Shown: piece after piece, positions 615 to 14,915 of the stretch | Layout of the letters: each line of letters opens with the position of its first letter | Position numbering within the stretch: position 1 is the stretch's first letter | IMG/VR virus record: IMGVR_UViG_3300048834_000044 | Location: 1-56,318 of that record | From: a virus | Lineage: Duplodnaviria > Caudoviricetes | Direction: 5' to 3' (one strand) | DNA: 56,318 nt | The notes under the pieces: model-generated | Databases searched by the model: none | Seen by the model: only the letters and a program-made list of their open reading frames with translations | What the model was told of the DNA's origin: nothing | Translations under genes and position numbers: made by a program

Positions 615-738
615 TATGCCTTACGTCCCTGCCACAGCGAGCACTCCTACCGAAGCAGATAAGACACACAGCACTCCCAAGACCCGTGGTACACTGACCT
701 CGCGCGCGCGCACGGAAGCAGATAAGGGGTTCTCATGA
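1..738 (+). CDS. 3' part of a possible junction-spanning low-complexity Lys/Gly/Ala/Glu/Arg-rich ORF (55850..56191 joined to 1..738, 359 aa)
   Basis: Frame 1 is open to TGA 736-738, which overlaps the terL ATG (ATGA). GHKG/HKE and TEADK repeats are in frame. Openness of the T-free part is trivially expected. Confidence 0.35.
   Translation, partial: NRAAAEKTNGHKENRDTASAATATGRTAKEHKGKQARAEEPKAEKNNRDRTASTTSQKQSTATTASQGQSASAEAEAQKPKGHKGKQERQGESKGEKGKQERQESKRSKSTKRKGHKGKQERQEGKGDKGKQARPRSTEAEAQSARGTRESAGAEKARGTRESARAEKAKGHKGKRGAPKPQGAQGKAGGTGGGRRTRRDRAGGPMPYVPATASTPTEADKTHSTPKTRGTLTSRARTEADKGFS
687..695 (+). promoter_or_regulatory. Putative extended -10 promoter (TGGTACACT) upstream of terL
   Basis: TGnTAnnnT pattern 40 nt upstream of ATG 735; the same TGGTAnnnT pattern recurs upstream of other genes. 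Confidence 0.5.
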
Positions 739-2249
739 CGACCGACTGGATCACTGCCCTAGAGGAGAAGGTCAAGACTGGCCTTGCCTCCCATCAGAAG
801 TACGGATCCACCCTCGAACTTGCCCAGGCGATCGACCCCTCCTACGTCGTGCGCGAGCATCTGCGGCTCATCAGTGACCGGCTGACGCAGGCCGTCCACG
901 ACGTCGAGCAGGGCCAGTCCCGCTACCTGATCATCTCACTACCCCCACGGGCCGGGAAGTCCTACACCACATCGATCTACTTCCCTCTGTGGCTGCTCTC
1001 CTGCCACCCCGACTGGCCGATCATGCTCCTGTCCCACGACCCCTCCCTCGCGAGCGGCTGGGGTCGCCAGGTCCGCCGACTGGTCGAGGAAGAGGGCGCG
1101 CGTCTCGGCCTCCACCTGTCCCCGGACGCCGGAGCCGCAAAGGAGTGGGAGACGACCCAGGGCGGCTCCCTGCTCTCAAGGTCCATCCGTGAGTCGGTCA
1201 CTGGCCGGGGTGCCAAGGTCATGATCCTGGACGATCTCGTCAAGGACTTCGCCGAGGCGCACTCCCCCACGACGCGCGACTTCACCTGGGACTGGTGGCT
1301 CGCCAACTCGCGTACTCGTCTCCACCCACCGTCCCTCGTCGTCGTCATCGGCACCCGGTGGCACGAGGACGACTTCATCGGTCGGCTTCTCTCCCCTGAG
1401 TACGAAGGCAACCCGGACCAGTGGGAGGTCATCACGATCCCGGCGCTGGCCGAGGACCCTGACGCGACCGACCCCAACACTAAGCGCCCGTTCGGCGAAG
1501 ATGCCCTGGGGCGGTTCCCCGGTGAGCCGCTCCTGTCCCCGCTCGTTCCCCATGAGACCGTTCAGGACGCTCTGCTCCGCTGGGAGGACATTCGCTCGGC
1601 GGTCGGGGAGTATGCGTGGGCGGGCCTGTTCCAGCAGCGCCCCGCCCCAGCCGCAGGGTCCATCTTCCTCAACGACTGGTGGCAGTTCTACGACCCCCAG
1701 AGCATCGACGAGATCGTCTTCGACAGGAAGATCACCAGTTGGGACGCCGCGTTCAAGAGCACCAAGGACTCTGACTGGGTCGTCGGCCAGGTCTGGGGCA
1801 CGGTCGGCTCGCGCCGCTACCTGCTGCGGCAGGTCCGCAAGCGCATGTCCTTCACGGAGACTCTCGCCATGATGGACGAGGTCATCGCAACCTCCGGCGC
1901 GTACGAACACATCGTCGAGGACAAGGCGAACGGCTCGGCGATCATCGACGTCCTCCGCGAGCGCATCCCTGGCATGATCCCCATCAACCCGACCACGAGC
2001 AAGGAGGCTCGCGCCCGCGCCGTCACGCCAGAGGTCGAGGCCGGGAACGTCTACCTCCCCGCCAGCGCTCCCTGGCTGGCAGACTTCCTGGGAGAGATGG
2101 GGCAGTTCCCGCATGGCGCGCACGACGACCAGGTGGACTGCACCACCCAGGCGCTCACTCGCCTTCGGTCCCTTGGAGTCGTGACGCCCCTGATCCCCCA
2201 GGCGACCATCAACCGCTCGACCGCCACGGTCGGACGGCGGCGGGCGTGA
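735..2249 (+). CDS. terL: Terminase large subunit
   Basis: Walker A-like PPRAGKS, Walker B ILDD, GTRWHEDD, and an RNase H-like C-terminus (SWDAAFK, HDDQVD). Confidence 0.95.
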   Translation: MTTDWITALEEKVKTGLASHQKYGSTLELAQAIDPSYVVREHLRLISDRLTQAVHDVEQGQSRYLIISLPPRAGKSYTTSIYFPLWLLSCHPDWPIMLLSHDPSLASGWGRQVRRLVEEEGARLGLHLSPDAGAAKEWETTQGGSLLSRSIRESVTGRGAKVMILDDLVKDFAEAHSPTTRDFTWDWWLANSRTRLHPPSLVVVIGTRWHEDDFIGRLLSPEYEGNPDQWEVITIPALAEDPDATDPNTKRPFGEDALGRFPGEPLLSPLVPHETVQDALLRWEDIRSAVGEYAWAGLFQQRPAPAAGSIFLNDWWQFYDPQSIDEIVFDRKITSWDAAFKSTKDSDWVVGQVWGTVGSRRYLLRQVRKRMSFTETLAMMDEVIATSGAYEHIVEDKANGSAIIDVLRERIPGMIPINPTTSKEARARAVTPEVEAGNVYLPASAPWLADFLGEMGQFPHGAHDDQVDCTTQALTRLRSLGVVTPLIPQATINRSTATVGRRRA

Positions 2250-2308: not shown

Positions 2309-3847
2309 GTGGCAGGCGAGCGCAGGCGTTGGGGTCGTCGCAAGGCGTCCGCAACCCCAGTTCAGGCATGGGCTTTCAACGGCCCGACGACCGACGCTGC
2401 CCTCACGGCGGCAGCCGCCAGCGTCCAGAAGATCAAGCGCGAGACCAAGACCTCGCTCGACGAGTCGTGGCAGCCAGAAGCCTGGCAGTACTACGATCAG
2501 GTCGGCGAGTTGCGCTTCGTCAGCAACGCCTTGGCCTCCCGCATGTCGGAGGCGAAGATCGAGGTCTGGCTCGACGGGGAGCAGATCGAGGACGACGAGA
2601 TCCTCCCGCTCGTCACCCGAGCCTTGGTCCGGCGTCTCGGCCTGAACCTGTACGTCGCGGGTAGCGCCTACTGGGTCGGCATCCCCACCGAGGACAAGAG
2701 CGACATCGACTGGCAGGTCTGCTCGACGCAGGAACTCAAGGTAGCCGACAACAGGGTCACCATCGGCCAGAAGGAGTACCGGCTCGACGAGATCTACCTG
2801 GACCGCATCTGGGACCCGCACCCCGCGAACTGGCTTGCGGCTGACTCCCCGGTTCGCTCTGCCCTTCCGACGCTTCGAGAACTCGTCGGCCTCACGCAGC
2901 ACGTCTCGGCCCAGATCGACTCTCGCCTTGCGGGCGCTGGCATCCTGTGGGTGCCGAACTCGATCCTGCAGTCCGGCCAGGCTCCCGCCAGCCAGCCGTC
3001 CCCGTCGTACAGCGAGAACCCGATCCTCAACGCGATCATGACCGCGATGCTGACGCCCATCGAGGATCGGGAGTCCGCCAGCGCCGTCGTCCCGCTGCTG
3101 CTCGGTGCGCCGGACGACGCGATCGGCAAGATCCGCTACGACACCTTCAGCACTCCCTTCGACAAGGAGACCAAGAGCCTCCGCGACGAGGCAATCCGGC
3201 GGCTAGCGCTCTCCCTGGACGCTCCGCCAGAACTCCTGTCCGGCATGGGCGACGCGAACCACTGGACCGGCTGGCTCATCGCCGACGAGGTCATCCAGGC
3301 ACACGTCGTTCCGCGCCTGTCCCTGATCTGCGAGGGTCTCGGCCACTGGTACAACGCCGTCAAGGAGACTCAGAAGGACGACCGCGCCGGGGACTACGAA
3401 CTCCGCGCCGACGTCTCGCACCTGACCCAGCGCCCCAACAGGTTCGCCGACGCCAACACGCTCTACGCGGCCGGGGTCCTCTCCGACGAGGCGTACATGG
3501 AGGCCGGAGGCTTCAACGCCGAGATGGACAAGCCGGACTCGCAGGAGTCGGCGATCCGGTACGCGATCCAGGTTGCCCTTGGGAACCCTCAACTCGTGGA
3601 CAACCTGCCCGAACTGTTCGCCGCGTTCCAGGCGCTGCTCGACGGCACCCCGGAGACCGGACCCGTTGTGGCAGAGCCGGTCCCGGCCGTGCCCGACGTC
3701 GCAGCCCCGCCGCCCAAGGGCGTCCCTGCCCCCACGGAGCAAGGCGGCAACGCGCGACCCGGTGAGGCACCGATCCGCCGGGCCGTCCCCGCGCCAGAGC
3801 AGGGCGGGCCACCGGCCAAGCCGACGGGCGTGGGAGCCGGGGCATGA
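2309..3847 (+). CDS. Portal protein
   Basis: 512 aa directly after terL, with WQPEAWQYYDQVGELRF, SRLAGAGILWVP and GMGDANHW motifs typical of actinophage portals; Pro-rich tail. Confidence 0.9.
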   Translation: MAGERRRWGRRKASATPVQAWAFNGPTTDAALTAAAASVQKIKRETKTSLDESWQPEAWQYYDQVGELRFVSNALASRMSEAKIEVWLDGEQIEDDEILPLVTRALVRRLGLNLYVAGSAYWVGIPTEDKSDIDWQVCSTQELKVADNRVTIGQKEYRLDEIYLDRIWDPHPANWLAADSPVRSALPTLRELVGLTQHVSAQIDSRLAGAGILWVPNSILQSGQAPASQPSPSYSENPILNAIMTAMLTPIEDRESASAVVPLLLGAPDDAIGKIRYDTFSTPFDKETKSLRDEAIRRLALSLDAPPELLSGMGDANHWTGWLIADEVIQAHVVPRLSLICEGLGHWYNAVKETQKDDRAGDYELRADVSHLTQRPNRFADANTLYAAGVLSDEAYMEAGGFNAEMDKPDSQESAIRYAIQVALGNPQLVDNLPELFAAFQALLDGTPETGPVVAEPVPAVPDVAAPPPKGVPAPTEQGGNARPGEAPIRRAVPAPEQGGPPAKPTGVGAGA

Positions 3848-4203
3848 CGAACGACATCCGTGTCCTCGGCGCGGCCTGCGATCTCGCCGTTGTGCGCGCT
3901 TTGGAACTCATCGGGAAGCGCGTCGTCCGCGCCGAGCGCGCCAGGTATGGCACCCTCGCCCGCGCCGGGCTCACCTGGCACGAGGCGCACACCGTCTGGG
4001 CACCGGACGAGGCCGCGATCGACGCAGCGCTCTCTGGCGCATGGACAGTCCTGCCGCGCCTGGTCAACGAGCACGGCTGCTGCCGCGTGGCCGAGCCAGC
4101 CCTCCAGGCGCTACTCGATGAGTACGTTCGGGATCTCGTGACGTCCCGAGCGCCGCATCGCTACGCCGACCTGGAGGGCCGTCTCCGTGTCCTCGCCGAC
4201 TGA
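3844..4203 (+). CDS. Hypothetical head-module protein
   Basis: 119 aa; ATGA overlap with portal; phage-like codon usage. Confidence 0.75.
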   Translation: MTNDIRVLGAACDLAVVRALELIGKRVVRAERARYGTLARAGLTWHEAHTVWAPDEAAIDAALSGAWTVLPRLVNEHGCCRVAEPALQALLDEYVRDLVTSRAPHRYADLEGRLRVLAD

Positions 4204-6478
4204 GTTCGAGAGCCAGGTCTCCAAGGCGGTCAAGGGCTACCTCGGTCGCCTGATCGACGAGGTCTGGCAGGCGCTCGCAGACGGCAAGGGCTCCTTCGCC
4301 AACCCGGTCTTCTCCCTCGGCACGCTGCTCGGTTGGTACATCGCCGACGTCGCCGACCCCCTGGTCAACGAGATCGAGGCCATGTGGGACAAGGAGTTCC
4401 CGGTCAACGAGGCTCGCGCCAGGCACATCGCAGCCGTCCGCGACCGGCTCGCCACGGACATCGAGCCGGAGATCCCCATCGGGGCCTTCGACTCTGTGCG
4501 CCTGTCCCAGTCGCTCGCCGCAACGCAGGGCTGGACGCCGCAGCAGATGGCCCGTGACATCGCGGAGCGGCTGTCCTGGGAGCCGAACAAGGACTTCTGG
4601 AAGCGGCAGAAGGACGACGCCGAGGCCGAGATCGACGCGATCCTGGACCCGCTCGGCCCGCCTGGCACCCCGGCACGGACGATCGTCCACAAGTCCGACC
4701 CGCGCATCAAGGAACTGCAGGCGCTCCGTGCCGAGGCCGTCACCGCGCTTCGTGCCGACGAGAGCGTCTGGAAGGACCGCGCGCAGCGCATCGCGCGCAC
4801 GGAGTTCACGGCGATGCAGGCGGCCGGTTCCCTGGCTGCCCTTGTGGCCGAGGGCGTTACGCACAAGCGCTGGCTGTCCACCCGTGACGGCCGGACCCGG
4901 CACTCGCACGCCGAGGCCAACGGGCAGGTCGTGGACATCCTAGGAGCCTTCGACGTCGGCGGCTTCCTTATGCAGATCCCCGGCGACCCGACCGCACCGC
5001 CCGAAGAGACCGTCAACTGCCGCTGCACGATCGTCGGTGCGACCGAGGACGACTACAAGCGCTCCATGCTGACCGCCGGAGCCACGAGCAAGCAGCCCTG
5101 GGAGTACCAGGTCCGCGTGCCGAAGGGCAACGGCAAGCGCTCCGGGCGCTGGATCGACATGCCTGGTAAGGTCCTCATGGAGATGTTCAGCGAGGAAGCG
5201 CTGTCGTACTACAGCGACGAGGACGAGGACCTGCTGCTGCAGGCGATCCAGCAGGCGATCTACTGGCACCCGGAAACCGTTGGGGCAGAGCGCTTCCTGG
5301 AGCGTGCCGACGAGTACCTGGAGCAGGTCGAGCGGGACAGCGACCCCGCGATCGCCGAGGCGCGCAAGTACATCGACGACTTCATCACCGGCATGGACTG
5401 GAGCCTCTACAACCCGGCGACAGACATGGAGCAGGACGAGGACATCGGTTACGGCGACGAGGACGACTGGTACGACGACGACCCCGAGCCGAGCCAGGGG
5501 TACTCGGGCGACCCCTACGAGGAGTACTTGCGCCTGTTGCAGAACGGCGGAGTGCCGAGCAACAAGGCACTGAGCCAGGCCGTCAGCGGGATGCTGGAAG
5601 ACGATGAGATTGCTGGAGTCTCGGCAGAGGCCGCGCTCCTGTGGACCTCCGCCTTGCAGGAGGCGCTTGCGGGGACCGGCGTCACGCTTCGCCTGGACCA
5701 GTTGGAGAACGACGGTCGTGAACTCCGGCTGTCGTGGTCGCTCACGGACGACGACGGCCACGAGATCGGCACGATGAACCGCTGGGCTACGGAATACGAA
5801 GTCCACCATGACTACTTCACGCTGGAGCCGGAGTACCAGGGCAAGGGTATCGCGCAGCGGCTGAACACGGCTGCCGAGGATCTGTACCGTGCCAACGGCA
5901 TCCAGTACATCACCCTCGACGCGAACATCGACGTCGGTGGCTACGCCTGGGCGAAGCAGGGCTACACGCTCGACGTGGACAAGGGCGGCCGTGACGCCAT
6001 GAAGGACGTTCTGCGGCGGCTCGCGATGGAGATCACCATGTCCTCCAAGGTCTTTGACCTTGTCGAGGCCTTCTCGACGCACATGGTCTACCACGGTGAC
6101 TACCCTGCCAATCTCGTGTACTTCATCGAGGAGTTGCGGTCTCTCGGGGTTGAGGTAGACTTCAGCGACGGTGACGAGTTCGACTACGAGTGGCGAGCGC
6201 AGGTGCTTCTCCAGGCGTACCTTGACCACTTCGGCGAGAGGGACAGCGAGGACGCGATCTTCCGGCTGCTTGACCTGGCGGCTGATGCCTTTGGCAACAG
6301 CGAGATTCAGATGTGGGACATCGCTTCCTTCGGACAGGGTGACCCGAAGTGGGAGCGTACCGTCGAGATCACGCAGTGGGACTCGACCGGGCGGACGATG
6401 ACCCGCACCCCCAAGGTCACCTGGCCCGGCAAGGAAGCACTGCTCGGAGCCCGCTGGCCGGGACGGAAGGACCTCTGA
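4187..6478 (+). CDS. MuF-like minor head protein with shared module and C-terminal GNAT acetyltransferase-like domain
   Basis: MuF motifs RIARTE, KRWLSTRDGRTRHSH and PGDP..PPEETVNCRC. C-terminal HDYFTLEPEYQGKGIA (acetyl-CoA motif A) and GGYAWAKQGY. Confidence 0.85.
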   Translation: MSSPTEFESQVSKAVKGYLGRLIDEVWQALADGKGSFANPVFSLGTLLGWYIADVADPLVNEIEAMWDKEFPVNEARARHIAAVRDRLATDIEPEIPIGAFDSVRLSQSLAATQGWTPQQMARDIAERLSWEPNKDFWKRQKDDAEAEIDAILDPLGPPGTPARTIVHKSDPRIKELQALRAEAVTALRADESVWKDRAQRIARTEFTAMQAAGSLAALVAEGVTHKRWLSTRDGRTRHSHAEANGQVVDILGAFDVGGFLMQIPGDPTAPPEETVNCRCTIVGATEDDYKRSMLTAGATSKQPWEYQVRVPKGNGKRSGRWIDMPGKVLMEMFSEEALSYYSDEDEDLLLQAIQQAIYWHPETVGAERFLERADEYLEQVERDSDPAIAEARKYIDDFITGMDWSLYNPATDMEQDEDIGYGDEDDWYDDDPEPSQGYSGDPYEEYLRLLQNGGVPSNKALSQAVSGMLEDDEIAGVSAEAALLWTSALQEALAGTGVTLRLDQLENDGRELRLSWSLTDDDGHEIGTMNRWATEYEVHHDYFTLEPEYQGKGIAQRLNTAAEDLYRANGIQYITLDANIDVGGYAWAKQGYTLDVDKGGRDAMKDVLRRLAMEITMSSKVFDLVEAFSTHMVYHGDYPANLVYFIEELRSLGVEVDFSDGDEFDYEWRAQVLLQAYLDHFGERDSEDAIFRLLDLAADAFGNSEIQMWDIASFGQGDPKWERTVEITQWDSTGRTMTRTPKVTWPGKEALLGARWPGRKDL

Positions 6479-9400
6479 TGATGACGCCGTCGCAGGCTCT
6501 CGCTGCAGCCTACGCCGAGTGGCTGACCACGCTGTCGCCAGTCACGCCGGAGATGCCTTACGCCACCAACGATCCCAGCCAGTACGCCGAGGGCTGCGAG
6601 GTCGTGTCAGCGACCGACGAGGACCAGCGCCGTCTGTTCGAGATGCAGAAGGCGGCCTTGCTCGACCTGGAGACTGCTCTGGTCGCATCGGCTCTCGGCT
6701 GGAAGGACCAGTTGCGTATCCCGCAGGGCAACGGGAAGCGCTCGGGCCGGTGGACGTTCACGCCGTGGGCGCATCTCGACGAACTCATCAGCCTCATCGG
6801 GAACCAGCCGGAGATCGTCGTCGCGCAGGACCGGCTGAACGGCTACAACCGGAACAACTTCGATGTGCGCGATGCAGACTTCAACGCTGCCGTCGCGCAA
6901 GCCGCCAAGGACCTCGACGGCGTGGCCGGAGCCGAGGACGTCCAGCAGGCGCTCCGTGACTGGGCCGAGACCGACTGGAGCCTGTTCGCCGAGGACTCCG
7001 ACATCGGACGGTACGACGACACCATCATCACCAAGAAGCGCGGGCGCTGGCAGTGGAACGAGGCGCTGCCGCCGGAGACGCCGGTCAACCCCGCGTACGC
7101 CGACTGGACGAGCCAGCGTCTCGTTGACCGCCTTGACGAGATTGCGAACCACCACACGGCTCCCAGCCCGAAGATGCGCCGCGACCGCACCGAGATCATG
7201 CAGGAGTTGAACGACCGCAAGGCCGGTGGCGAGACGACGACCAACTGGGACTCGCGCGTCGCAGCCCTCGAACCGTACGCTGAGACAGGACCGAACTACA
7301 TCCGCTCGGTTGCCGACGAACTGAACACCGCCAAGCGGCTGAAGCGTGATGGGAGGGATGAGGAAGCAGAGCACTTCCTCAAGAACGCTGAGACAGCGCT
7401 GCAGCGAGCCAAGCCAACGCCCGCGCCGACGCCAACCCCTGATGCCCCGACGTCGATCGTCGTGATGAAGCACCCCGATGCGGTCAATCCTTCAACGGCC
7501 ACAAGGAATCCTGACGGTTCAATCACGGTCGTCCTTCCAAACGGGAGGGCAGAGACGATCTCCGGCCGGAAGGGGATGACACACGCGCTCATCCGTCGCA
7601 ACGGTGGTCCCGGCAAGCCGAACAAGTACACCCCGCCTGCCGGGGGTTACTTCATCAGTCTCGCTGGCAGCGAGGAGAAGGCGCTCAAGGAGGGACAGGT
7701 CCAGGTCTACGACCGCACGCACATCGAGGTCGTGCCGATCCTGGACCCGGCGGCATCGACACCAGAGCCGAAGCCGACACCCGACCCCGTCAAGCAGGTT
7801 CGTCAGAAGGCGTTGAGCCGCATCGTCCCTGTTGATCGAGCCCTCGCTGACCCCGATCTGACCGACGACCAGCGTGCGGCTCTTGAACTGCTCGCGCAGT
7901 CCCCGGACGGGCTGTCGGAGAGCGATCTCAGTGAGCGTCTGCACGGTGGCGACGGCACGCTCGCCAAGTTGGACGCCGTCATGAAGCCGTTGGAGGGCAA
8001 GAGTTACGTCGTTCCGCAGCGCTGGGGCGACAGCAAGACCTACCTGGCTCGACCGGCTGAGGGACCCCCGCTCACGTCTCCGCGCCCGCCGGAGATCCCG
8101 CTCGCAACCGAGGACGAGGACCGTCTTCGCGAGAAGGATCTGAAGTGGGACAAGGGCTGGCGTCCGACGATGAAGAACCCGCACGACCCCGAGGACATCA
8201 ACGGGTGGGGCGACGCAGCGTACGACAAGCCGTCTTCGGAGTACATCGCTCTCGCAGAACTGTTCCAGAGCATGCGGAATGGCAACCCGCAGGGTGCGGT
8301 TTCGATGGAGACAACGCTCCAGAAGGCTGCCGATCTGGCTCGGGCTGCTGGAGAACCGGGGATCGGCGAACTGCTCGACATCGCCAAGTGGGGCGTGGAG
8401 AACGGCGACCCGACCACCGTGCGGACGGCGTTCGAGCAGGTGCTCTGGCAGGGTCGCACGACGCCGGTCGTCGCGACGAAGGCTGACGCCAACTGGATCA
8501 GCGGATTCGGCATGGGCGCGACTTCCTATGCAAATCAAGTAAAGATCAAGCGCTTCAATGAGTGGGCGTCGTACCAGGCACAGGGCTTGGAGACCCAGGC
8601 CGACCTGCACCGGCTCCTGAAGGACATGGAGGCCAACGTTCCTACGGCCTACCCCAACGACCCGCAGATGGCCCGGCGCTTCAAGAGCATGCAGCAGAAG
8701 GACATCGAGGCCGCACTGGTCGCGAGTGAGCCGGACGCCGCGCCGACAGCGGCGATCAGCAGGGCCTACGGCATCGTGGACACGCCCGAGTGGCACGAGG
8801 CGATCAACGCCTTGGGAGACAAGATCCTCCCGGACGCCGAGTCGCCCCTCTACGAGCGCTACGGGACCGTCCCCGAGGAGCGCCGGACGCCGCAGGCTGT
8901 CATCAAGGACATCGGAAAGTTCTACTCGATCCGTGCCCTCGGCAACAACTGCGTGCTGGCCAGCAACGCCTACGAACTCCGGCGGCGCGGCATCGACGCG
9001 GAGCCCAAGCAGGCTGCCAAGGGACGCAACGCAGAGTACTCGCAGCGCCTCTGGTACCGCAACCCCGAGTTCAAGACTGTCGAGGGGCTCAAGGGGTTGC
9101 AGAAGAAGAACCGCTCGAAGACGGTCTACAAGCACGTCGCCGACCACTACCCTCCCGGCTCGCGCGGGACGATCCGCTGCGGCTGGAAGGGACGCTCCTT
9201 CGGGCACATCTGGAACTGGGAGGTCCACGAGGACGGTGAGGTCGTGTTCTACGACGCGCAGACGGGCAAGATCGTCCCGCCGGACTCGTCCTACTGGTTC
9301 GACATGGAGTGGGACGGCGTGAAGACGGCGCGGCTCGACAACCTCCGGCTGTTGGAGGACATCGAGGTTCTGATCGAGCCCTCGGTGAAGGAGATGTCGG

Positions 9401-9609
9401 CCGAGGAGCGCGTGCTGGCCGAGAAGTACGCGGAACTCCGAGAGCGCATGGGCGTCTTGGCAAGGTCCGGTCAGTACAACAGCGAGTACGAGGCGCTGGC
9501 TGCCCAGGCCGACGAGATCCGCAAGCGGCTCAAGACGATCGCGGACTCGTACGAGATCCTGCACCCCGAGGTCAACACGCTCGCCGCGCTGAAGGGAGGC
9601 AAGAAGTGA
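6478..9609 (+). CDS. Large polyvalent protein (1043 aa): shared module, winged-helix-like region, C-terminal papain-like toxin (Tox-PL / glutamine deamidase-like) domain
   Basis: ATG 6478 overlaps the MuF stop (TGATG). NNCVLASNAYELRRRG, GHIWNW and YDAQTG give a Cys-His-Asp triad; wHTH-like segment at ~7858-8052. Confidence 0.78.
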   Translation: MMTPSQALAAAYAEWLTTLSPVTPEMPYATNDPSQYAEGCEVVSATDEDQRRLFEMQKAALLDLETALVASALGWKDQLRIPQGNGKRSGRWTFTPWAHLDELISLIGNQPEIVVAQDRLNGYNRNNFDVRDADFNAAVAQAAKDLDGVAGAEDVQQALRDWAETDWSLFAEDSDIGRYDDTIITKKRGRWQWNEALPPETPVNPAYADWTSQRLVDRLDEIANHHTAPSPKMRRDRTEIMQELNDRKAGGETTTNWDSRVAALEPYAETGPNYIRSVADELNTAKRLKRDGRDEEAEHFLKNAETALQRAKPTPAPTPTPDAPTSIVVMKHPDAVNPSTATRNPDGSITVVLPNGRAETISGRKGMTHALIRRNGGPGKPNKYTPPAGGYFISLAGSEEKALKEGQVQVYDRTHIEVVPILDPAASTPEPKPTPDPVKQVRQKALSRIVPVDRALADPDLTDDQRAALELLAQSPDGLSESDLSERLHGGDGTLAKLDAVMKPLEGKSYVVPQRWGDSKTYLARPAEGPPLTSPRPPEIPLATEDEDRLREKDLKWDKGWRPTMKNPHDPEDINGWGDAAYDKPSSEYIALAELFQSMRNGNPQGAVSMETTLQKAADLARAAGEPGIGELLDIAKWGVENGDPTTVRTAFEQVLWQGRTTPVVATKADANWISGFGMGATSYANQVKIKRFNEWASYQAQGLETQADLHRLLKDMEANVPTAYPNDPQMARRFKSMQQKDIEAALVASEPDAAPTAAISRAYGIVDTPEWHEAINALGDKILPDAESPLYERYGTVPEERRTPQAVIKDIGKFYSIRALGNNCVLASNAYELRRRGIDAEPKQAAKGRNAEYSQRLWYRNPEFKTVEGLKGLQKKNRSKTVYKHVADHYPPGSRGTIRCGWKGRSFGHIWNWEVHEDGEVVFYDAQTGKIVPPDSSYWFDMEWDGVKTARLDNLRLLEDIEVLIEPSVKEMSAEERVLAEKYAELRERMGVLARSGQYNSEYEALAAQADEIRKRLKTIADSYEILHPEVNTLAALKGGKK

Positions 9610-9896
9610 TCGACTACATGGAGGCCCGGAAGCGGGCTGAGGAGTTCTACGGCGGCCCCGTCACCGACGACCCGATCGTCAACCCTGGCCAGAAGATCTG
9701 GCTGTTCATCCCGGTCGCCGAGGCATCCGCAGACGGCGAGAGCCTGATCGCCGTCTCCGAGGACTCCGTGTGGCAGATCGGTTCCTCGCCGGACGCGCTC
9801 GAACTGATCGGCGCTGAGATGCCGCTCGACCCCGAGACCGAGGACGAAATCGCCGGTCTCGTTGCTAGCCTTTCTGAGACCGAGGGGGTAGGATGA
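9606..9896 (+). CDS. Putative immunity protein (YrhB/Imm35-like) of the papain-like toxin
   Basis: GTGA-coupled 96-aa acidic ORF right after the toxin domain. Its IDYMEARKRAE..WLF..G..LIAV..VWQIGS pattern resembles YrhB/Imm35. Confidence 0.55.
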   Translation: MIDYMEARKRAEEFYGGPVTDDPIVNPGQKIWLFIPVAEASADGESLIAVSEDSVWQIGSSPDALELIGAEMPLDPETEDEIAGLVASLSETEGVG

Positions 9897-12800
9897 CCTC
9901 CGTGGACGCAACCTGGTGGGGGCCGATCGGCCTCGAAGGTCAGAAGACCGGCGACGGTCGTACGATCGAACTGAACGCGCTCACCTGGGGCGAGTTCCCG
10001 CTCCCGCTGCGGTGGGCTCCCGAGGACTACGGTGCCCACGACGGGGCCAAGGTGGTCGGTCGCATCCTCGGCATCAGCCGGGACAAGGACGGTCGGCTCA
10101 TCGGCTTCGGCGACTTCGACATGGACAGCGAGCACGGTCGCGAGGCTCAGCGCCACGTCACGAAGGGCCTGACGCCCGGAGTCTCGATGGACCTCGACGA
10201 CATCCTGCTCACCGAGAGCGAGGACGGCCAGGACCTCACCATCACCCAGGGCCGCGTCCGAGGCGCGACTCTCGTTGCGATCCCTGCGTTCGCGGACGCC
10301 CGGCTGTCCAGCATCGACGTCTCGACGCTGGCCGACGAGCCGACCGACCCCACCCAGGAGACGCCGGAAGCCGATGTGGCTGAGGCAGTCTCACTGGCCG
10401 TCGCCGACAGCGCGGAGACGGCGACCTTCAACTGGGTCGAGGACGCGGGCGGTCTCCCCAAGTACGTCAAGCGGATCGCCACGCACCTGAAGGCGAAGGG
10501 CATGGACGAGAGCCACGCGATCGCCGTGGCTGTCAACGTGGTCAAGAAGATGTGCGCCTCCGGCGACGTCAACTTCCCCGGTGCCCAGCAGGTCAACGCC
10601 AAGAGCCGCGCCGAGGCGTGCGCCGCCGTGGCCGAGTGGGAGGCGAAGAAGGCCAAGGCGAAGGTGAGCGGCGCGGACACCGAGCCGTTCAGCCTCACGG
10701 CTGCTGCGTACCCGCGCTCGTTCTTCGACAACCCCGGCCTGTCCGCGCCAACGCCGCTGACGGTGGACGACGACGGGCACGTCTACGGCCACATCGCCCT
10801 GTGGGGCACCTGCCACATCGGCTTCAAGGGCTGCACGCAGCCCCCCAACAGCCCCAGCAACTACGCGTACTTCAACACGCACGAGGTCACAACCGACGAC
10901 GGCCGCCGCGTCGCCGTCGGTCGCCTCACGATGAACACTCTCCATGCAGGACAGCGCCTTTCGGCGAACGACACCGTGTACCACTACGAGCACACGGGCG
11001 CTGTTGGCGCGTACGTCCGCGCTGGCGAGGACCAGCACGGCATCTGGGTTTCCGGTGTGGCGCATCCGAAGGCGGACATCGACGCCCTCCGGGCCGCCCC
11101 GGTCTCTGGCGACTGGCGGCGCATCGGCTCCGGCCTCGAACTCGTCGGGCTGCTCTCTGTCAACGTGCCGGGCTTCCCGGTGCCTCGTCCGCAAGCCCTT
11201 GTGGCGTCTGGAGAAGTCATGAGCCTGGTCGCAGGTGGGATGAACACGACGGAGCGTCGCACGACGCTCGCGATCGAGCGCGTCAAGGCGATGGTCTTCG
11301 GCTACAACAAGGACCAGTGGCGCGTCCCGAAGGGCAACGGGGAGATCAGCGGTCGCTGGGTGGACATGCCCGACGTCAGCCTGACGGCGCTGATGGACAC
11401 GCTGATGGACCTCGCCGACCGTGGCGTGATCGGCGAGGACCGCGCGCCCGACATCGGCGAGGCGATGGACAAGGCGCAGGAGGCCAGCAGCCGCATCACC
11501 GCTGCGATCGAGGCGGCTGACGGTGACGGCGCGCGAGCGGCTGCCGAGGAGGCCAGCGAGCACCTGAGTCTCGTTGAGGCGCAACTGCAGGACCTCGCCG
11601 ACAACGGCGACGGCCTGAGCGAGGACGAGATGACGAACCTGGGTGAGCGGCTCACCGAGGCTCGCGACTCCGTGGATCTCGTCAAGGACAGCGACCTCTC
11701 GCTCCTGGGCGACGAGGGCATCGGCGGCGACGACCCGACCGGCGACATCGGTGCCGACGAGCCCGAGATCGGCGACGTGGACACCCCGGCACCCGGCGAC
11801 GACGACTCCGGCAAGGAGGCGATCTGGAAGGGCTTCGAGGACTCGTACCTCCAGAACGCTGACCCCGAGGAGGACGTCAACCCCGACACCCTGCGGGAGC
11901 AGTACGACGCCGACATCGCGGCGGGCAGTACGCCCGAGGAAGCGATCGCCAACGTCGCAAAGACCGTGCAGGACAACAGGAACCCCGGAACGCCGGATGC
12001 CCGAGAGGCGGCTCGGGAGGCGATCTCTCAGGACTCCGAGGGTCCGATCGACATCGAGAACGTCTCGGGCGACATCATCGACTTCGCCAAGGACGCCGAC
12101 CTCTCCCCAGCACAGGTTCTCGATGAGGCCCTTGACCTCTGGATCGGCGGCGAGTCGTCCGGCTGGAAGGACCTGGACCGCGTCTTCGACATGGCGGAGG
12201 CCAACGAGTTGTCTCCCCAGGAGTTGAAGGACGCCTTGGGCCTCAGCGACTCTCCGGCGACCCCCGACGTCCCGGATGCCGACGTCCCCGACGTGCCCAA
12301 GGGCTCCATCGACTTCGAGGGTGTCAACCCGGACGGCACCATCCCCGAGAGCGACAACGAGAACGACTGGCCGGAGGCGGAAGTCCTTCACACCCTTCCT
12401 GTCGGCTCCGTGGTCTCCGACGACTCCGGCTACGAGTTCACCAAGACCGCCTTGGGGGAGTGGGAGGTCTCGAAGGAGGGACCGTCTGCGGCTGAAGACG
12501 ATCTCCCTCTTGGCACCCCGATCACGGAGCAGGACGTCCTGGCGGGTGGCGACTCGGTGCTGGCTGTCAAGAGCGTTGGCCCCGATCAGCGCTCGGCCGA
12601 CGCGCCCAACTCCGATGCGCCAGAAGCACCTTCGAACGGCGACATCCTTCCGCTGGGGCATGGCGAGCCCGCCCCGGACGACGACGGGCCGAAGGGGGGA
12701 GAGCGGCCTGCAACTCCGCAGGAGAAGGAGGCTGCTGCCAGCGCGTCCAAGGCCGTGAAGGCGCTGGATCGCTTGGTGGACAAGATCGACATGAGCCGGG

Positions 12801-13075
12801 ACGAGCGCTTCACGCTCTACCGCATCATCGGTGCCGTGGGCGGCCTGGCGGACGGTCTCAAGTACGACTTCCCGGTCGAGCGTGACACCGAGATGATCCA
12901 GGAAGCGTGGGCAGCCATGCAGAGTGTGGACATCCAGGACCCCAAGGTACAGAAGGCGTTTGACAAGGTCATGGACGAGGCCAGGAACATGCTGTCGTTG
13001 TACGACATCGAACTGGCCGACCCGCGCGCTCTCACCGAGCCGCCCTTCCACGGCGAGATCGTCATCACGCTCTGA
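9893..13075 (+). CDS. Capsid maturation protease with helical insert, second protease-like domain, shared module and acidic C-terminal extension
   Basis: EGQKTGDGR..ATLVAIPAF N-domain and FFDNPGLSAPTPLTV..GHIALWGTCH..SGDWR..LELVGLLSVNVPGFP domain; located just before the capsid gene. Confidence 0.82.
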   Translation: MTSVDATWWGPIGLEGQKTGDGRTIELNALTWGEFPLPLRWAPEDYGAHDGAKVVGRILGISRDKDGRLIGFGDFDMDSEHGREAQRHVTKGLTPGVSMDLDDILLTESEDGQDLTITQGRVRGATLVAIPAFADARLSSIDVSTLADEPTDPTQETPEADVAEAVSLAVADSAETATFNWVEDAGGLPKYVKRIATHLKAKGMDESHAIAVAVNVVKKMCASGDVNFPGAQQVNAKSRAEACAAVAEWEAKKAKAKVSGADTEPFSLTAAAYPRSFFDNPGLSAPTPLTVDDDGHVYGHIALWGTCHIGFKGCTQPPNSPSNYAYFNTHEVTTDDGRRVAVGRLTMNTLHAGQRLSANDTVYHYEHTGAVGAYVRAGEDQHGIWVSGVAHPKADIDALRAAPVSGDWRRIGSGLELVGLLSVNVPGFPVPRPQALVASGEVMSLVAGGMNTTERRTTLAIERVKAMVFGYNKDQWRVPKGNGEISGRWVDMPDVSLTALMDTLMDLADRGVIGEDRAPDIGEAMDKAQEASSRITAAIEAADGDGARAAAEEASEHLSLVEAQLQDLADNGDGLSEDEMTNLGERLTEARDSVDLVKDSDLSLLGDEGIGGDDPTGDIGADEPEIGDVDTPAPGDDDSGKEAIWKGFEDSYLQNADPEEDVNPDTLREQYDADIAAGSTPEEAIANVAKTVQDNRNPGTPDAREAAREAISQDSEGPIDIENVSGDIIDFAKDADLSPAQVLDEALDLWIGGESSGWKDLDRVFDMAEANELSPQELKDALGLSDSPATPDVPDADVPDVPKGSIDFEGVNPDGTIPESDNENDWPEAEVLHTLPVGSVVSDDSGYEFTKTALGEWEVSKEGPSAAEDDLPLGTPITEQDVLAGGDSVLAVKSVGPDQRSADAPNSDAPEAPSNGDILPLGHGEPAPDDDGPKGGERPATPQEKEAAASASKAVKALDRLVDKIDMSRDERFTLYRIIGAVGGLADGLKYDFPVERDTEMIQEAWAAMQSVDIQDPKVQKAFDKVMDEARNMLSLYDIELADPRALTEPPFHGEIVITL

Positions 13076-13092
13076 CGCACCGACGCAGATCC

Positions 13093-13121
13093 TTGCGTTT
13101 CCAACAACTTCATGATACGAT
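13093..13121 (+). promoter_or_regulatory. Putative capsid promoter TTGCGT-N17-(TGA)TACGAT
   Basis: Canonical spacing with an extended -10; intergenic; SD AAGGAGG at 13165-13171. Confidence 0.65.
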
Positions 13122-13178
13122 CGCAGTGAACGCCGCTGGCGCATGGGCCGGGCAGACCACTTCCAAGGAGGAAGTCTG

Positions 13179-14915
13179 ATGTCCGGCAAGAAGAATCAGA
13201 TCGTGATCCCCGAGGACCTGGCGACGCTCAGCGACCAGGACCTCACCGCGCTGCACGACCAGGCCGTCGAGGTCTTCAAGACCCTCATCCCTTCCGAGGG
13301 CGAGGCTCCGACCGACGAGGGCCTGCAGGCGCTCAACGTCCTCGCCGAGGGCATCGAGGCGCTGAAGGCCGAGGTCTCCACCCGCGAGGCCGCTGCCCTG
13401 GCGCGCAAGGAGTCCGTGGCGGCCCTGGCGCAGCGCGTCATGCCGACCCCGGCCGACACCGGCGAGGCCGAGGCCGAGCCGGACCCCGAGGACCCCGAGG
13501 AGGACAAGGAGAAGGAGGACGACGCGGCCGAGGCCGTCGTCGCTGCCGCCTCCCGTCCCGTCCGGCGTCGTCGCCGCCCCCCGATCAACATCGACGTCGC
13601 CAGCCTGGCGAAGAAGGACGTGACCCCCGTGTCCGAGACCCAGGAGCCCAAGGCTCCCAAGACCATCGGCTTCGCGGCGCAGGGAGCCACCGGCTTCGAC
13701 GTCGGCAAGCCGCTCACCACGCTCGACATGGCCAAGGCGATCAACAGCCGTCTCGCGGGCTTCAACCCGGCGGCCTACTCGCTCGCGGCTCAGCGCGGCG
13801 TCCGGCAGTCGGAGCGCTTCGCGATCGCGCGCCTGGTCCGCGAGTTCCCCGAGGACATGATCGTCCAGTCCGAGGACCCGCGCACCGCGATCGACGCGGC
13901 GATCGACCAGAGCCGTCTCCAGGGCCAGTCTCTCGTCGCCTCCGGCGGCTGGTGCAGCCCGTCCGAGACGCTCTACGACCTGATCGACATCTCCGAGGCC
14001 GCGAACCTGCTCTCGCTGCCGGAGATCCAGGTCAACCGTGGCGGCGTCCGTCACGCGCTCGGGCCGGACTACGCGTCCATCTTCACCGACACCGGCTTCT
14101 GCTACACCGAGGCCGAGGACATCGCGGGCGACTACGACGGCGAGGGTGCGGGCTCGAAGCCCTGCTTCCACGTCGAGTGCTTCGACTTCACCGACGTCCG
14201 GCTCGGCTACTGCGGCGTGTGCGTCACGGCGGGCATGCTGCAGCAGCGCGGCTACCCCGAGGCGATCGAGGTCACCATCGGCGCGGTTCTCAACGCGCAC
14301 ATGCACCGCGTGTCGGCGTTGGTCATCAACGACGTCGTCGCCGGTTCGACCGCGATCACCTGGGGAGGCACCCCGCAGGCCGGTGCGACCGCGCCGCTCC
14401 TGACCGCGATCGACATGCAGGCCATGCACCTGCGGGCGTCGAACCGCATGCGGGACGACGCGGTCCTGGAGGTCGTGCTCCCGACGTGGAGCAAGGCCGT
14501 CATCCGCGCCGACCTCGCGCGCCGTCTCGGCGTGGACCTGCTGTCGGTCTCCGACGCTCGCATCGCGGGCTTCTTCGCCGACCGCAACGTCAACGTCCAG
14601 TACGTCGTGGACTGGCAGGACATCGCGGCCACGGCCAAGGCGTCGTTCGTCGCCCCGCCGACCTCGGTCAAGTTCCTGCTGTACCCGGCGGGCACCTGGG
14701 TCAAGGGCGTCACGGACTCGATCACGCTGGAGAACATCTACGACTCCACGCTGCTTGGGACCAACGACTACACCGCGCTGTTCACCGAGGACCCGTACCT
14801 CGTCCTCAAGCGCATCGCCGACTCGCGCGTCGTGACCGTCGCCGTCGAGGCGACCGGCAACACGCACATCGGTTCGGAGATCGCGGCGAACGGCACCTAC
14901 ACCCCCGCCGCCTGA
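13179..14915 (+). CDS. Major capsid (hexamer-type) protein with N-terminal scaffold/delta-like region
   Basis: Strong SD before ATG 13179. A helical acidic N-terminus precedes SLVASGGWCSPSETLYD and LSLPEIQVNRGGV, as in cluster-B-like actinophage capsids; very strong codon bias. Confidence 0.88.
   Translation: MSGKKNQIVIPEDLATLSDQDLTALHDQAVEVFKTLIPSEGEAPTDEGLQALNVLAEGIEALKAEVSTREAAALARKESVAALAQRVMPTPADTGEAEAEPDPEDPEEDKEKEDDAAEAVVAAASRPVRRRRRPPINIDVASLAKKDVTPVSETQEPKAPKTIGFAAQGATGFDVGKPLTTLDMAKAINSRLAGFNPAAYSLAAQRGVRQSERFAIARLVREFPEDMIVQSEDPRTAIDAAIDQSRLQGQSLVASGGWCSPSETLYDLIDISEAANLLSLPEIQVNRGGVRHALGPDYASIFTDTGFCYTEAEDIAGDYDGEGAGSKPCFHVECFDFTDVRLGYCGVCVTAGMLQQRGYPEAIEVTIGAVLNAHMHRVSALVINDVVAGSTAITWGGTPQAGATAPLLTAIDMQAMHLRASNRMRDDAVLEVVLPTWSKAVIRADLARRLGVDLLSVSDARIAGFFADRNVNVQYVVDWQDIAATAKASFVAPPTSVKFLLYPAGTWVKGVTDSITLENIYDSTLLGTNDYTALFTEDPYLVLKRIADSRVVTVAVEATGNTHIGSEIAANGTYTPAA

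Follow-up and report, generated by a model that had tools for sequence, protein, structure and literature searches.

In an uncultured, actinophage-like virus of a siphovirus lineage, three proteins encoded by head genes were found to have a small conserved domain in common at the carrier-cargo boundary, and comparison with relatives supports the view that this module is a recurrent, selected unit lying ahead of exchangeable cargo on several carriers. The relatives further suggest that the domain may mark effector units which are loaded into the phage head. The genes concerned lie on the plus strand of the window, by which we mean the whole 56,318-nt stretch analysed (IMG/VR record IMGVR_UViG_3300048834_000044):

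2309..3847, plus strand: portal protein, 512 aa (phrog_776, E 4.1e-96, profile positions 18-497)
4187..6478, plus strand: MuF-module-GNAT protein P0001, 763 aa (translation; Pfam Phage_Mu_F and Acetyltransf_1)
6478..9609, plus strand: orphan module-toxin protein, 1043 aa from the ATG at 6478 (translation; homologues P0008 and P0009 with a similar start)
9618..9896, plus strand: small immunity-like ORF, 92 aa (no family match)
9893..13075, plus strand: prohead protease-module-acidic scaffold-like protein P0003, 1060 aa (phrog_859, E 1.2e-91; phrog_18402, E 8.3e-53)
13143..14915, plus strand: major capsid protein (MCP), 590 aa (phrog_777, E 6e-151)

The MCP is 47% identical to that of Microbacterium phage Leaf, and the open reading frames of the window include none between the P0003 and MCP genes. 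The MuF, orphan, immunity-like and protease genes, originally proposed to be translationally coupled, have the corresponding stop/start overlaps: TGATG (6476-6480) between the MuF stop and the orphan ATG, GTGA (9606-9609) between the orphan stop and the start of the small ORF (with an alternative start ATG at 9618), and ATGA (9893-9896) between the small ORF stop and the protease start.

The MuF-GNAT protein, the 1043-aa orphan with its papain-fold Gln_amidase and the prohead protease each carry the motif R-x-P-x-G-N-G-x-x-S-G-R-W, of which the window has three occurrences and no others, against 3.65e-6 expected from composition (regular-expression search of the six-frame translation, 112,632 residues). 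Downstream of all three motifs D[WL]SL[FYL] is followed by [DG][IV]G, so that the elements extend over 98, 112 and 135 residues, and the coordinates predicted for the modules and for the L[TV]A[SG] sites considered below match the translations:

5099..5449, plus strand: module copy 1 (MuF), W305 to G421, with the RVPKGNGKRSGRWIDMP motif, helices and DWSLY...DEDIG; GNAT-associated tree clade
6700..7008, plus strand: module copy 2 (orphan), with the RIPQGNGKRSGRWTFTPW motif, four helices and DWSLF..DSDIG; toxin-associated clade
11303..11725, plus strand: module copy 3 (protease), with the RVPKGNGEISGRWVDMP motif, four long helices and DLSLLGDEGIG; protease clade

In pairwise BLASTP comparisons the MuF module matches those of the orphan (E 2e-9, 26/66 identical) and the protease (E 4e-8, 27/84), and the latter two match one another (E 9e-6, 21/52), all alignments being confined to the N-terminal motif and its flanks. 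Since the core of the window copies is only 68-75% identical at the DNA level over 57 nt, with differing codons at 5-6 of 11-15 identical residues, the motif is conserved at the protein level. After trimming of both conserved ends, the helical middles of 19 protease-class and 21 MuF/orphan-class modules gave an hhalign probability of 3.8% (E 0.011, not significant), so that what had been described as the same ~110-140 aa module in triplicate may instead be two short motifs flanking an unrelated helical spacer; the original description thus stands for the motif count and the conserved ends, which are the only parts detectably similar between these two classes. AF2 folding covered the protease and orphan copies, and these models nevertheless show the predicted module as a beta-hairpin followed by four helices, with pLDDT 73-98 over both (protease: hairpin strands 475-477 and 489-491, helices 493-599, pLDDT 73-95; orphan: strands 78-80 and 92-94, helices 96-164, pLDDT 94-98).

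A profile search of 1.84 billion sequences returned 89 representatives at E<=1e-3 (43 at E<=1e-10), 74 of which bear the motif and 36 the full module. The 117 motif instances have one extended consensus in common, [FY]-N-P-x-Q-x-R-[VIA]-P-[KR]-G-[NT]-x(2-4)-G-[RQ]-W-[IV]-D-[TM]-P-x3-L, and its residues R, P, G, N, G, W and P do not vary even between clades that are otherwise saturated with substitutions. The 15 matches lacking the motif, 13 of them also without MuF or protease similarity and therefore probably spurious or fragments, might be taken to indicate a chance resemblance or low-complexity artefact, since these 13 resemble helical or low-complexity matches or fragments; for the segment as a whole, such an explanation has next to no probability, being already contradicted by the motif counts (3 observed versus 3.7e-6 expected), the common consensus and the profile search, as well as by the confident AF2 models.

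The carriers of the 74 motif-bearing representatives comprise MuF in 24, protease domains in 25, both in one and neither in 24, in agreement with the claim that interchangeable cargo is borne by several carriers beyond MuF, and the cargo domains found (among them Gln_amidase, ADP-ribosyltransferase, Zeta toxin, 2H phosphoesterase, GNAT, DUF7178, DUF3626, HNH and topoisomerase-I-like) include the variable enzymatic domains expected behind the module. One motif copy is present in 50 of these proteins, two in 14, three in nine and five in one (P0039, at 61, 367, 733, 1067 and 1379). The module thus lies between carrier and cargo in MuF proteins, at the head of free-standing effectors, between the protease domains and the acidic tail, or up to five times among the effector domains of polyvalent proteins, and in the polyvalent proteins scanned (P0039, P0045, P0046, P0056, P0048, P0075, P0078 and P0065, among others) the motifs are always between Pfam domains. 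The motif is within 60 residues of the N-terminus in 13 representatives, and in the free-standing genes of loci L027-L029 it lies 28-43 residues past a plausible start codon, a position more in keeping with a tag than with a simple cleavage site.

The expectation that the module is confined to head genes holds for every locus with visible context (the window, L004, L021/L025, L028 and L029), where the motif-bearing genes are situated between the portal and MCP genes. L004 and L021, which represent two further virus lineages with the arrangement seen in the window, have module copies in MuF and protease, L021 with an additional variant copy in a 2H-phosphoesterase protein. In the more distant L028 and L029, MuF and a neighbouring gene bear the motif and the protease does not, indicating that the protease-borne copy is not required. 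Moreover, the motif is accessory, since it is wholly lacking in a number of close relatives whose portal, protease and MCP belong to the same families (L005, L008, L010, L011, L012, Dulem virus 38 and phage Leaf); a tblastn search of 50,697 cultured phage records with two module queries returned nothing significant.

In the module tree the copies cluster by cargo type. The protease clade (86/63) contains all of the protease-borne modules (22/22), and orphan and MuF-fused forms are interleaved among the 17 members of the toxin clade (98/94), whose well-supported branches require at least three changes between the two forms. Read from this tree, the module is shown to be inherited along with its cargo, the link to MuF having been made or broken repeatedly. 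Such a pattern could also be produced by a passive spacer, an inert linker domain, similar to polymorphic-toxin pre-toxin modules, that would insulate its neighbours and provide a constant joint at which cargo cassettes are exchanged, with the protease-gene copy as a by-product of domain shuffling. That the module moves with its cargo, that fusion and fission with MuF recur just upstream of it, the high cargo diversity, the freely varying helical middles and the relatives that manage without a module are all consistent with this explanation. We nevertheless regard it as unlikely: the intragenomic copies, at the DNA identity given above, are a poor substrate for homologous recombination, the protease-clade copy is kept in all 22 protease-borne modules despite the lack of exchangeable cargo behind it, and the invariant residues across saturated clades point to a binding surface rather than a spacer.

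We tentatively favor, at somewhat less than even probability, a model in which the segment common to the three proteins folds as a small adaptor domain, marks the start of each separable internal-head-protein unit and acts through docking, co-assembly and cleavage. The adaptor would consist of the strictly conserved beta-hairpin motif, supplemented in this sublineage by a four-helix bundle closing with D-[WL]-S-L...D-I-G. The face of the hairpin would dock onto a common procapsid partner, candidates being the protease/scaffold core, the inner capsid surface and the portal, and polypeptides starting with the hairpin domain would thereby enter the head during its assembly. Subsequent cleavage by the prohead protease at h-[TV]-A-[SAG] sites, located in flexible linkers immediately ahead of the module, would detach the GNAT and Gln_amidase toxin units, each with its module, from MuF and split the protease from the scaffold, and the freed units would exit together with the DNA at infection. 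Packaging, cleavage and delivery by the module system are thus what we infer, and the original prediction, read as a whole, is partly supported. The sites and domains concerned are as follows:

4748..5032, plus strand: MuF domain of P0001, aa 188-282 (PF04233 Phage_Mu_F, 40.9 bits versus a cut-off of 29.6; phrog_2468, E 2.5e-32)
5069..5080, plus strand: LTAG, putative cleavage site preceding module copy 1 (in relatives, ALTAAG or AVTASA in the equivalent position)
5747..5965, plus strand: GNAT acetyltransferase cargo domain, aa 521-593 (Pfam Acetyltransf_7, _1, _10)
6679..6690, plus strand: LVAS, putative cleavage site preceding module copy 2 (AF2: inside helix aa 47-77, pLDDT ~66-71)
9893..10312, plus strand: ProtN, N-terminal protease-like domain (TIGR01543 proheadase_HK97 at aa 48-139, E 2.3e-4, 21.3 bits, under the cut-off of 59; AF2 beta-rich at 7-128)
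10691..11167, plus strand: ProtC, C-terminal protease-family domain (phrog_18402 'head maturation protease' at aa 267-474; AF2 strands and helices at 296-422)
10694..10705, plus strand: LTAA site before ProtC in a disordered linker (AF2 pLDDT <50 at 259-271)
11195..11239, plus strand: ALVASGEVMSLVAGG double site in a disordered linker (LVAS 11198, LVAG 11225; pLDDT <50 at 424-471)
11723..13072, plus strand: acidic C-terminal region, 450 aa (D+E 24%, pI 4.05)

The GNAT predicted behind the MuF module is confirmed by an Acetyltransf_1 match at aa 523-579 (23.4 bits versus a cut-off of 20.7), and the acidic stretch after the protease module has the ~450-aa extent originally given. This stretch, the last ~100 aa of which are conserved in P0019, P0037 and L004, is probably a scaffolding part. 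An L[TV]A[SG] motif ahead of each copy, likewise predicted, is present in the window (LTAG 5069, LVAS 6679, LVAS 11198 and LVAG 11225), but such a site is found within 25 aa upstream of only 12 of 108 motif instances (background 1.7%), and the looser [LIVM][TV]A[SAG] within the same distance of 35 of the 108 (background 5.3%); these candidate sites are enriched near the motifs, yet not universal. As the orphan LVAS is modelled in a helix, its accessibility is uncertain. Among 16 aligned proteases, h-[TV]-A-[SAG] sites are nearly invariant in two linkers. An [LVM][TVLIS]A[SAG]A-type site is found in 15 of the 16 (P0019 alone differs, its LTAA standing one alignment column later), and the ALVA.G...SLVA.G pattern is invariant, as are residues A435, L436, V437, A438, S444 and L445 of P0003. 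Such near-invariance in linkers that are disordered in the AF2 model lends the cleavage idea no more than indirect support.

The same sites would be expected if the motif served only to be recognised by the prohead protease, directly or as an exosite, and marked the polyprotein junctions at which MuF polyvalent proteins and the protease-scaffold protein itself are cut into pieces, with no role in head entry. Inter-domain junctions recurrently bear the motif, up to five per protein, one copy exactly separates the protease domains from the scaffold-like tail, and the conserved h-[TV]-A-[SAG] sites are located in disordered linkers 9-15 residues upstream. Herpesvirus assemblins, distant relatives of HK97-type prohead proteases, cleave at (V/L)-x-A|S, and a Foldseek search with the P0003 model gave weak matches to herpesvirus proteases (E 0.02-0.1). 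However, in free-standing proteins no more than 10-60 residues precede the retained motif, leaving little to remove, a 35-residue invariant hairpin with a folded bundle far exceeds known prohead-protease sites, and the L028/L029 protease is itself without a copy, for which reasons we consider a pure processing signal improbable.

Even less probable, in our estimation, is a function after ejection, in which the hairpin-bundle would act in the infected cell or during exit rather than in assembly, for example by binding DNA or a host factor or by guiding unfolded cargo via the portal/tail channel. In HK97-type assembly, scaffold and protease are normally gone before DNA packaging, so that the protease/scaffold copy is hard to explain in this manner, and the whole module is acidic (pI 4.05-4.45). 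The motif itself is basic (R, K, R) and is found in proteins expected to accompany the DNA; relatives of MuF, SPP1 gp7 for example, are described as head proteins (PMC5512222), and the variant motif of L021 P0011 is followed by a K/A/P-rich stretch.

Returning to the adaptor model, we rate the finding as falling within the known MuF-toxin and polyvalent-protein theme, the difference being an adaptor shared with free-standing toxins and the protease. The T4 capsid targeting sequence (CTS) is a portable element at the start of internal cargo proteins that directs them to the prohead interior; it comprises ~10 residues, gp21 cleaves it off at L/I-x-E, and the phage lineage is a different one. The proposed module role resembles it in combining a portable cargo-start sequence with cutting by the prohead protease, whereas the element here is a folded domain of ~100-140 residues whose position implies that, unlike the T4 CTS, it would remain on the cargo after an upstream cut.

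The cluster B mycobacteriophage 'capsid maturation protease and MuF-like fusion protein' belongs to the same MuF, ProtN and ProtC families, and phrog_859 spans both. As in protease-scaffold fusions, known from lambda C/Nu3 and P2 gpO, the protease gene is directly upstream of the MCP gene and the acidic C-terminal part occupies the expected scaffold place. ProtC is matched in 875 cultured actinophage records; by contrast, cultured-phage matches to P0003 end at aa 439-468, short of the module, which no cultured record matched.

VENN and PT-TG pre-toxin modules are conserved elements N-terminal to exchangeable toxin cassettes; they mark the cassette boundary and abut the toxin directly, in secreted proteins. 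The module described here is likewise conserved and N-terminal to exchangeable cassettes, but differs from the pre-toxin modules (Zhang et al. 2012) in that 60 to ~700 residues separate it from the toxin, that its carriers are phage head proteins and that one copy has no toxin behind it.

In the main text on MuF polymorphic toxins (Jamet et al. 2017, PMC5576092), a variable toxin at the C-terminus follows a MuF head domain at the N-terminus, the gene adjoins the portal gene and a small downstream ORF is the likely immunity gene; P0001, P0005 and P0010 have the same layout. The terms 'linker', 'motif' and 'cleav' are absent from that main text, and the proteins studied here have a conserved adaptor that separates MuF from its cargo, heads free-standing toxins and recurs in the protease. 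Furthermore, those toxins are encoded by temperate phages and are far commoner in Firmicutes (PMC5576092), whereas the virus studied here resembles lytic cluster-B-type actinophages; no integrase was found among the eight large ORFs of the virus examined. Polyvalent proteins, known from phages and conjugative elements (Iyer et al. 2017, PMC5512222), combine several effector domains (ART, 2H, GNAT, peptidases) per MuF- or portal-fused polypeptide, and multi-effector polypeptides are fused to MuF here too. They are predicted to be packaged and injected, and the main text proposes processing into pieces by autoproteolysis via built-in MPTase domains. 'Linker' and 'conserved motif' are absent from that main text, the supplementary alignments of which might hold the motif; here, units are delimited by a repeated 35-residue motif common to the prohead protease gene.

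Behind its module, the orphan contains two further domains:

7111..7410, plus strand: second helical domain, aa 212-311 (AF2 helices, pLDDT 85-96)
8944..9270, plus strand: papain-fold Gln_amidase toxin domain, PF15644 (Pfam 32.7 bits versus a cut-off of 24.1; aa 866-974 counted from nt 6349)

The papain-like toxin predicted for this protein is therefore present, while the 'wHTH' assigned to it has no family match; the post-module stretch at aa 183-257 gave BLASTP matches in 13 relatives with the same toxin. The role predicted for the small ORF behind the toxin gene is protection of the producing cell. It is homologous to the N-terminus of L021 P0011 (E 2e-6), which likewise follows a Gln_amidase gene, and is unrelated to the ORF after the ART-ending toxin of L004; the small ORF thus co-varies with the type of toxin.

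The viral record is complete (56,318 bp with direct terminal repeats, G+C ~66%), and the genes that matter here lie on the plus strand in the following order:

735-2249, plus strand, large terminase (left arm)
2309-3847, plus strand, portal, 512 aa, matching positions 18-497 of the phrog_776 profile
3844-4203, plus strand, 119-aa ORF overlapping the portal ORF (ATGA) and matching phrog_776 positions 523-618
4187-6478, plus strand, MuF-GNAT gene (left arm)
6478-9609, plus strand, orphan, 1043 aa (left arm)
9618-9896, plus strand, small ORF, 92 aa (left arm)
9893-13075, plus strand, protease protein, 1060 aa (left arm)
13143-14915, plus strand, major capsid protein (MCP), 590 aa
beyond the MCP gene, plus strand, phrog_779 protein, major tail protein and head-tail adaptor (left arm)

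The split of the portal gene looks conserved and not like a sequencing error, because the related viral locus L004 has ORFs of equal size in the same position (2403-3887 and 3884-4243). The stop/start overlaps invoked for translational coupling of the MuF, orphan, small-ORF and protease genes are real. Both the capsid and the protease belong to actinobacteriophage families, with matches in 877 phage records for the MCP and in 875 for the protease. The MCP shares 47% identity with its counterpart in Microbacterium phage Leaf and ~36-39% with those of cluster B mycobacteriophages; no similarity to phage records was found at the DNA level. The window also encodes a DNA polymerase, an exonuclease, a helicase and a primase (33375-35285, 35941-37059, 47267-48667 and 51944-54340; minus strand).

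The original prediction held that three head proteins share one module, and its coordinates are all correct. The signature R.P.GNG..SGRW occurs three times in the 112,632 six-frame residues of the window (expected, 3.65e-6), once each in the MuF-GNAT protein (P0001), the orphan (P0002) and the protease protein (P0003), and every copy is closed by D[WL]SL[FYL] and [DG][IV]G, so that the three extend over 98, 112 and 135 residues. Pairwise BLASTP among the copies yielded E values of 2e-9, 4e-8 and 9e-6. At the DNA level, the segments coding for the core share 68-75% identity and use different codons at 5-6 of 11-15 identical residues, which argues for conservation at the protein level and against a recent duplication. 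As to the cargo proposed to follow each copy, the GNAT and Gln_amidase domains score above Pfam cut-offs and the protease tail is indeed acidic (450 aa, D+E 24%, pI 4.05), whereas the wHTH lacks family support.

To describe the module further we used AF2 models, which cover the protease and orphan copies only. The model of P0003 residues 1-640 (16-sequence alignment) has low overall confidence (mean pLDDT 65.8, pTM 0.30), despite which residues 472-600 score pLDDT 73-95 and form a predicted hairpin (475-477/489-491) followed by helices at 493-509, 518-540, 544-570 and 577-599. In the model of the first 341 orphan residues (21 sequences), a hairpin (78-80/92-94) and four shorter helices (96-164) reach pLDDT 94-98, and a second helical domain follows the module at 212-311. 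Since both models consist of a hairpin and four helices, the protease and orphan classes appear to share an architecture. Similarity beyond GNG..SGRW extends to this predicted architecture and the closing motif but not to the helical middles, for which a profile-profile comparison without the conserved ends detected no similarity (19 versus 21 sequences; hhalign probability 3.8%, E 0.011). On these models, the most fitting description of the module is a variable four-helix bundle framed by a conserved hairpin and a conserved closing motif. Foldseek returned nothing at E<=0.001 for the P0003 1-640 model against the PDB, with only generic four-helix bundles besides weak matches to herpesvirus proteases (E 0.02-0.1), and nothing at E<=0.001 for the orphan model against BFVD; ESM Atlas gave no usable match. 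Co-folding of P0003 468-612 with orphan 44-185 scored 0.13 against a mark of 0.32, which counts neither for nor against a complex.

Using a profile built from seven modules, we searched 1.84 billion proteins and obtained 89 representatives at E<=1e-3 (43 at <=1e-10, 6 at <=1e-30), the full module being present in 36. The motif was found in 74 of the 89 (one copy in 50, two in 14, three in 9, five in 1); by BLAST to the window domains, 24 of these 74 carry MuF, 25 protease domains, one both and 24 neither. Thirteen of the 15 motif-less representatives also lack MuF or protease similarity and are probably spurious or fragments. From 117 instances in all proteins collected we derived the extended consensus [FY]-N-P-x-Q-[AWL]-R-[VAI]-P-[KR]-G-[NT]-x(2-4)-G-[RQ]-W-[IV]-D-[TM]-P-x3-L-x2-L. 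In polyvalent proteins the motif lies between Pfam domains:

Motif positions and domains in four polyvalent relatives
P0039: motif 61, Gln_amidase 127-228, motif 367, motif 733, DUF3626, motif 1067, motif 1379
P0046: protease N-domain, motif 180, DUF7178, motif 553, motif 794, Zeta toxin
P0075: 2H, motif 574, Zeta
P0048: Gln_amidase, motif 608, topoisomerase-I-like domain

Related viral loci repeat the arrangement. L004 encodes a module-bearing protease (45% identical to that of the window) and a 1782-aa protein running from MuF and module to ART, and L021/L025 encode a module-bearing protease together with a 1469-aa protein in which MuF and module precede a homologue of the window orphan, including its Gln_amidase toxin. 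In L021, the 529-aa protein P0011 (4958-6547) combines an immunity-like N-terminus homologous to the window 92-aa ORF (E 2e-6), the variant motif HPRGPAGDPTGGQF, a K/A/P-rich stretch and a 2H phosphoesterase (PF13563). A GGQWIDTP pattern retrieved three further viral loci. Two of these, L028 and L029, show the order portal, MuF polyvalent protein (1-3 motifs), free-standing motif gene with a plausible start 30-43 residues before the motif, and motif-less protease; the 449-aa motif-bearing gene of L028 has no homology to the P0003 tail. In the third, L027, a portal and a MuF polyvalent gene bearing two motifs are accompanied by a pair of free-standing motif genes, in one of which 28 residues separate the motif from a plausible start; the stretch retrieved contains no protease. 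Module queries by tblastn against cultured phages and against plasmids gave nothing significant, and one pattern found nothing in viral contigs. Downstream of the orphan module, aa 183-257 (window ~7024-7248; WQW...PPETPVNP...HHTAPSPKMRRDR...) are conserved in 13 Gln_amidase-toxin relatives, both MuF-fused and free-standing. This stretch has no family match, and the AF2 helical domain (7111-7410) lies downstream of its start.

In a maximum-likelihood tree of 45 full modules, one branch (86/63; recovered in 90% of bootstrap trees) had all 22 protease-borne modules on the same side, the five GNAT-linked modules and P0075 formed a second group, and the 17 toxin-linked modules a third (98/94). As the window's copies fall in three groups, they represent three old subfamilies. 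Free-standing and MuF-fused forms intermingle in the toxin group (for instance, P0026 with P0009, 98/87; P0029 with P0032, 95/96), where the well-supported branches require a minimum of three changes between the two states. Truncated gene calls could account for some of the free-standing representatives, but P0008, P0009, P0018 and P0023 all have an initial M, located at comparable distances from the motif. Judged from the sequences compared, the module stays with its cargo, and fusion to MuF, directly upstream of the module, has repeatedly arisen or been undone. A segment with such a history might be a passive spacer or a recombination joint, which we regard as unlikely. How such arsenals evolve is seen in the way module-cargo units have repeatedly fused with MuF and split from it.

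The original prediction further placed an L[TV]A[SG] site ahead of each module. Such a site is present at all three window copies and enriched in relatives, but the strict form precedes only 12 of 108 motifs within <=25 residues (background 1.7%); the looser [LIVM][TV]A[SAG] precedes 35 of 108 (background 5.3%), most candidate sites lying 9-15 residues ahead of the motif's arginine. Eight strict sites fall within eleven head-region proteins (5,416 aa), the density across all six-frame ORFs of >=200 aa being 0.41 per 1000 aa. The protease itself consists of two separable domains, ProtN (9893-10312) and ProtC (10691-11167). In 16 aligned proteases, ProtC is followed by ALVA[SGA]G.V.SLVA[SAG]G, with A435, L436, V437, A438, S444 and L445 invariant, and a site of the [LV][TV]A[SA]A type precedes ProtC. 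Both linker sites lie in stretches with pLDDT <50 in AF2, as is typical for functional linear motifs; the orphan's candidate site is modelled within a helix. In the MCP, a long, helical and acidic N-terminal part (aa 1-265 of 590) is followed by an R-rich stretch. Residues 259-275 (GSLVA[SA]GGWC[AS]PSE) are invariant and common to phage Leaf, Dulem virus 38, L008 and L011, and the candidate maturation site LVA↓SGGW (aa 264) is invariant in five MCP homologues, but BLAST conservation with cultured-phage MCPs begins as early as aa 148 (148-268, varying by phage). The candidate sites ahead of the modules and around ProtC may resemble the herpesvirus assemblin consensus, (V/L)-x-A↓S. We infer that the protease may cleave at these module and linker sites. 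A site upstream of the toxin domain (ALVASEPDA) was discarded, being common only to the closest homologue, P0008.

The window protease matches PHROG protease families strongly; it has no Pfam match, and TIGR01543 (HK97-family prohead protease) scores 21.3 bits on aa 48-139, below the cut-off of 59. Candidate His and Ser residues of the predicted catalytic pair were read by eye. By hhalign, ProtN and ProtC show no homology (probability 0.08%), and a tandem duplication of one fold was discarded on that ground. In relatives they can sit on different proteins or be parted by one or two modules (P0017, P0049, P0052), and ProtN alone can bear polyvalent cargo (P0046, P0093, P0097). Gene order, the acidic tail and the absence of an ORF between the P0003 and MCP genes may point to a putative protease-scaffold fusion; neither Pfam nor PHROG gave P0003 a scaffold family match. 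Phage Leaf gene 58 (9490-13392), a 1300-aa 'hypothetical protein', has ProtN and ProtC ~2.4 kb apart with AAVTASGGW between; no motif was found in the insert by regex.

Among known systems, P0001 has the domain features of a MuF-effector fusion, with a MuF domain (PF04233) at aa 188-282 (40.9 bits; cut-off 29.6) and a C-terminal effector, which is GNAT here, ART in P0005 and Gln_amidase in P0010. The orphan has no MuF domain. No small ORF (<150 aa) follows P0001, and the 92-aa ORF after the orphan toxin co-varies with toxin type, making it a candidate immunity gene. MuF toxins are encoded by temperate phages or prophages; in the window, no integrase was found among eight large ORFs scanned, and two narrow degenerate patterns found no match in 185,579 species genomes. 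Each window protein carries a single Pfam effector, whereas at least two, as in polyvalent proteins, occur in the relatives P0008 and P0045 (ART and Gln_amidase) and P0075 (2H and Zeta). The T4-type capsid targeting sequence is a short N-terminal peptide; the module is a folded domain of 100-140 aa, and no gp21-type protease (L/I-x-E) is present, the candidate sites being h-[TV]-A-[SAG]. Pre-toxin modules belong to secreted toxins, whereas the window proteins are head-gene products in which module and toxin do not abut (~640 aa apart in P0002, ~100 aa in P0001). The element is neither a T4-type targeting peptide nor a classical pre-toxin motif. MuF toxins (PMC5576092) and polyvalent proteins (PMC5512222) are established, and the main texts of both papers, supplements aside, mention no linker or conserved motif between units. 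A literature search with literal motif strings, which did not cover supplements, found no paper. What appears new, from sequence comparison, is a repeated adaptor that delimits cargo units and is common with the protease gene.

MuF-borne toxins and polyvalent proteins presumably enter the host cell along with the phage DNA. To our knowledge, only for T4 and P1 is it understood by what route free-standing or multi-domain cargo gets into the head and is cut into functional pieces. We tentatively favour, at somewhat less than even confidence, a role of the hairpin-bundle in docking: as an adaptor it would bring units into the procapsid, and protease cuts upstream of the module would release them. 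The module could instead be a processing signal only, a reading that we think improbable: free-standing genes keep the motif near the N-terminus, the motif is invariant across clades saturated with change, and the module starts the scaffold-like part of the protease protein, all of which favours a tag over a cleavage site. Counting against the docking adaptor, relatives without a module exist, and the L028 and L029 proteases lack a copy. Action of the module after ejection seems very improbable. A conserved adaptor at the boundary of each cargo unit, present in the protease/scaffold gene as well, would offer a mutable handle on entry and cutting and, if it is a loading tag, a tool to load chosen proteins into actinophage particles.

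More speculatively, and with considerable doubt, actinophage-like viruses may possess a general, portable cargo-loading system, in which adaptor-led proteins (alone, as a polyprotein behind MuF, or behind a protease domain) would be co-assembled into the procapsid, owing either to the copy of the adaptor on the scaffold/protease protein or to a single site on the HK97-fold shell that binds all copies, and cuts by the prohead protease at assemblin-like h-[TV]-A↓[SG] sites would yield the individual injected effectors. The shell-site option would resemble encapsulin cargo-loading peptides, to which we take the tail L-S-L-L-G-x-x-G-I-G to be loosely similar.

Elsewhere in the window, 30 nt at 35351-35380 match, in the opposite orientation, nt 433-462 of the MuF gene (87% identity, E 7e-4), probably by chance.
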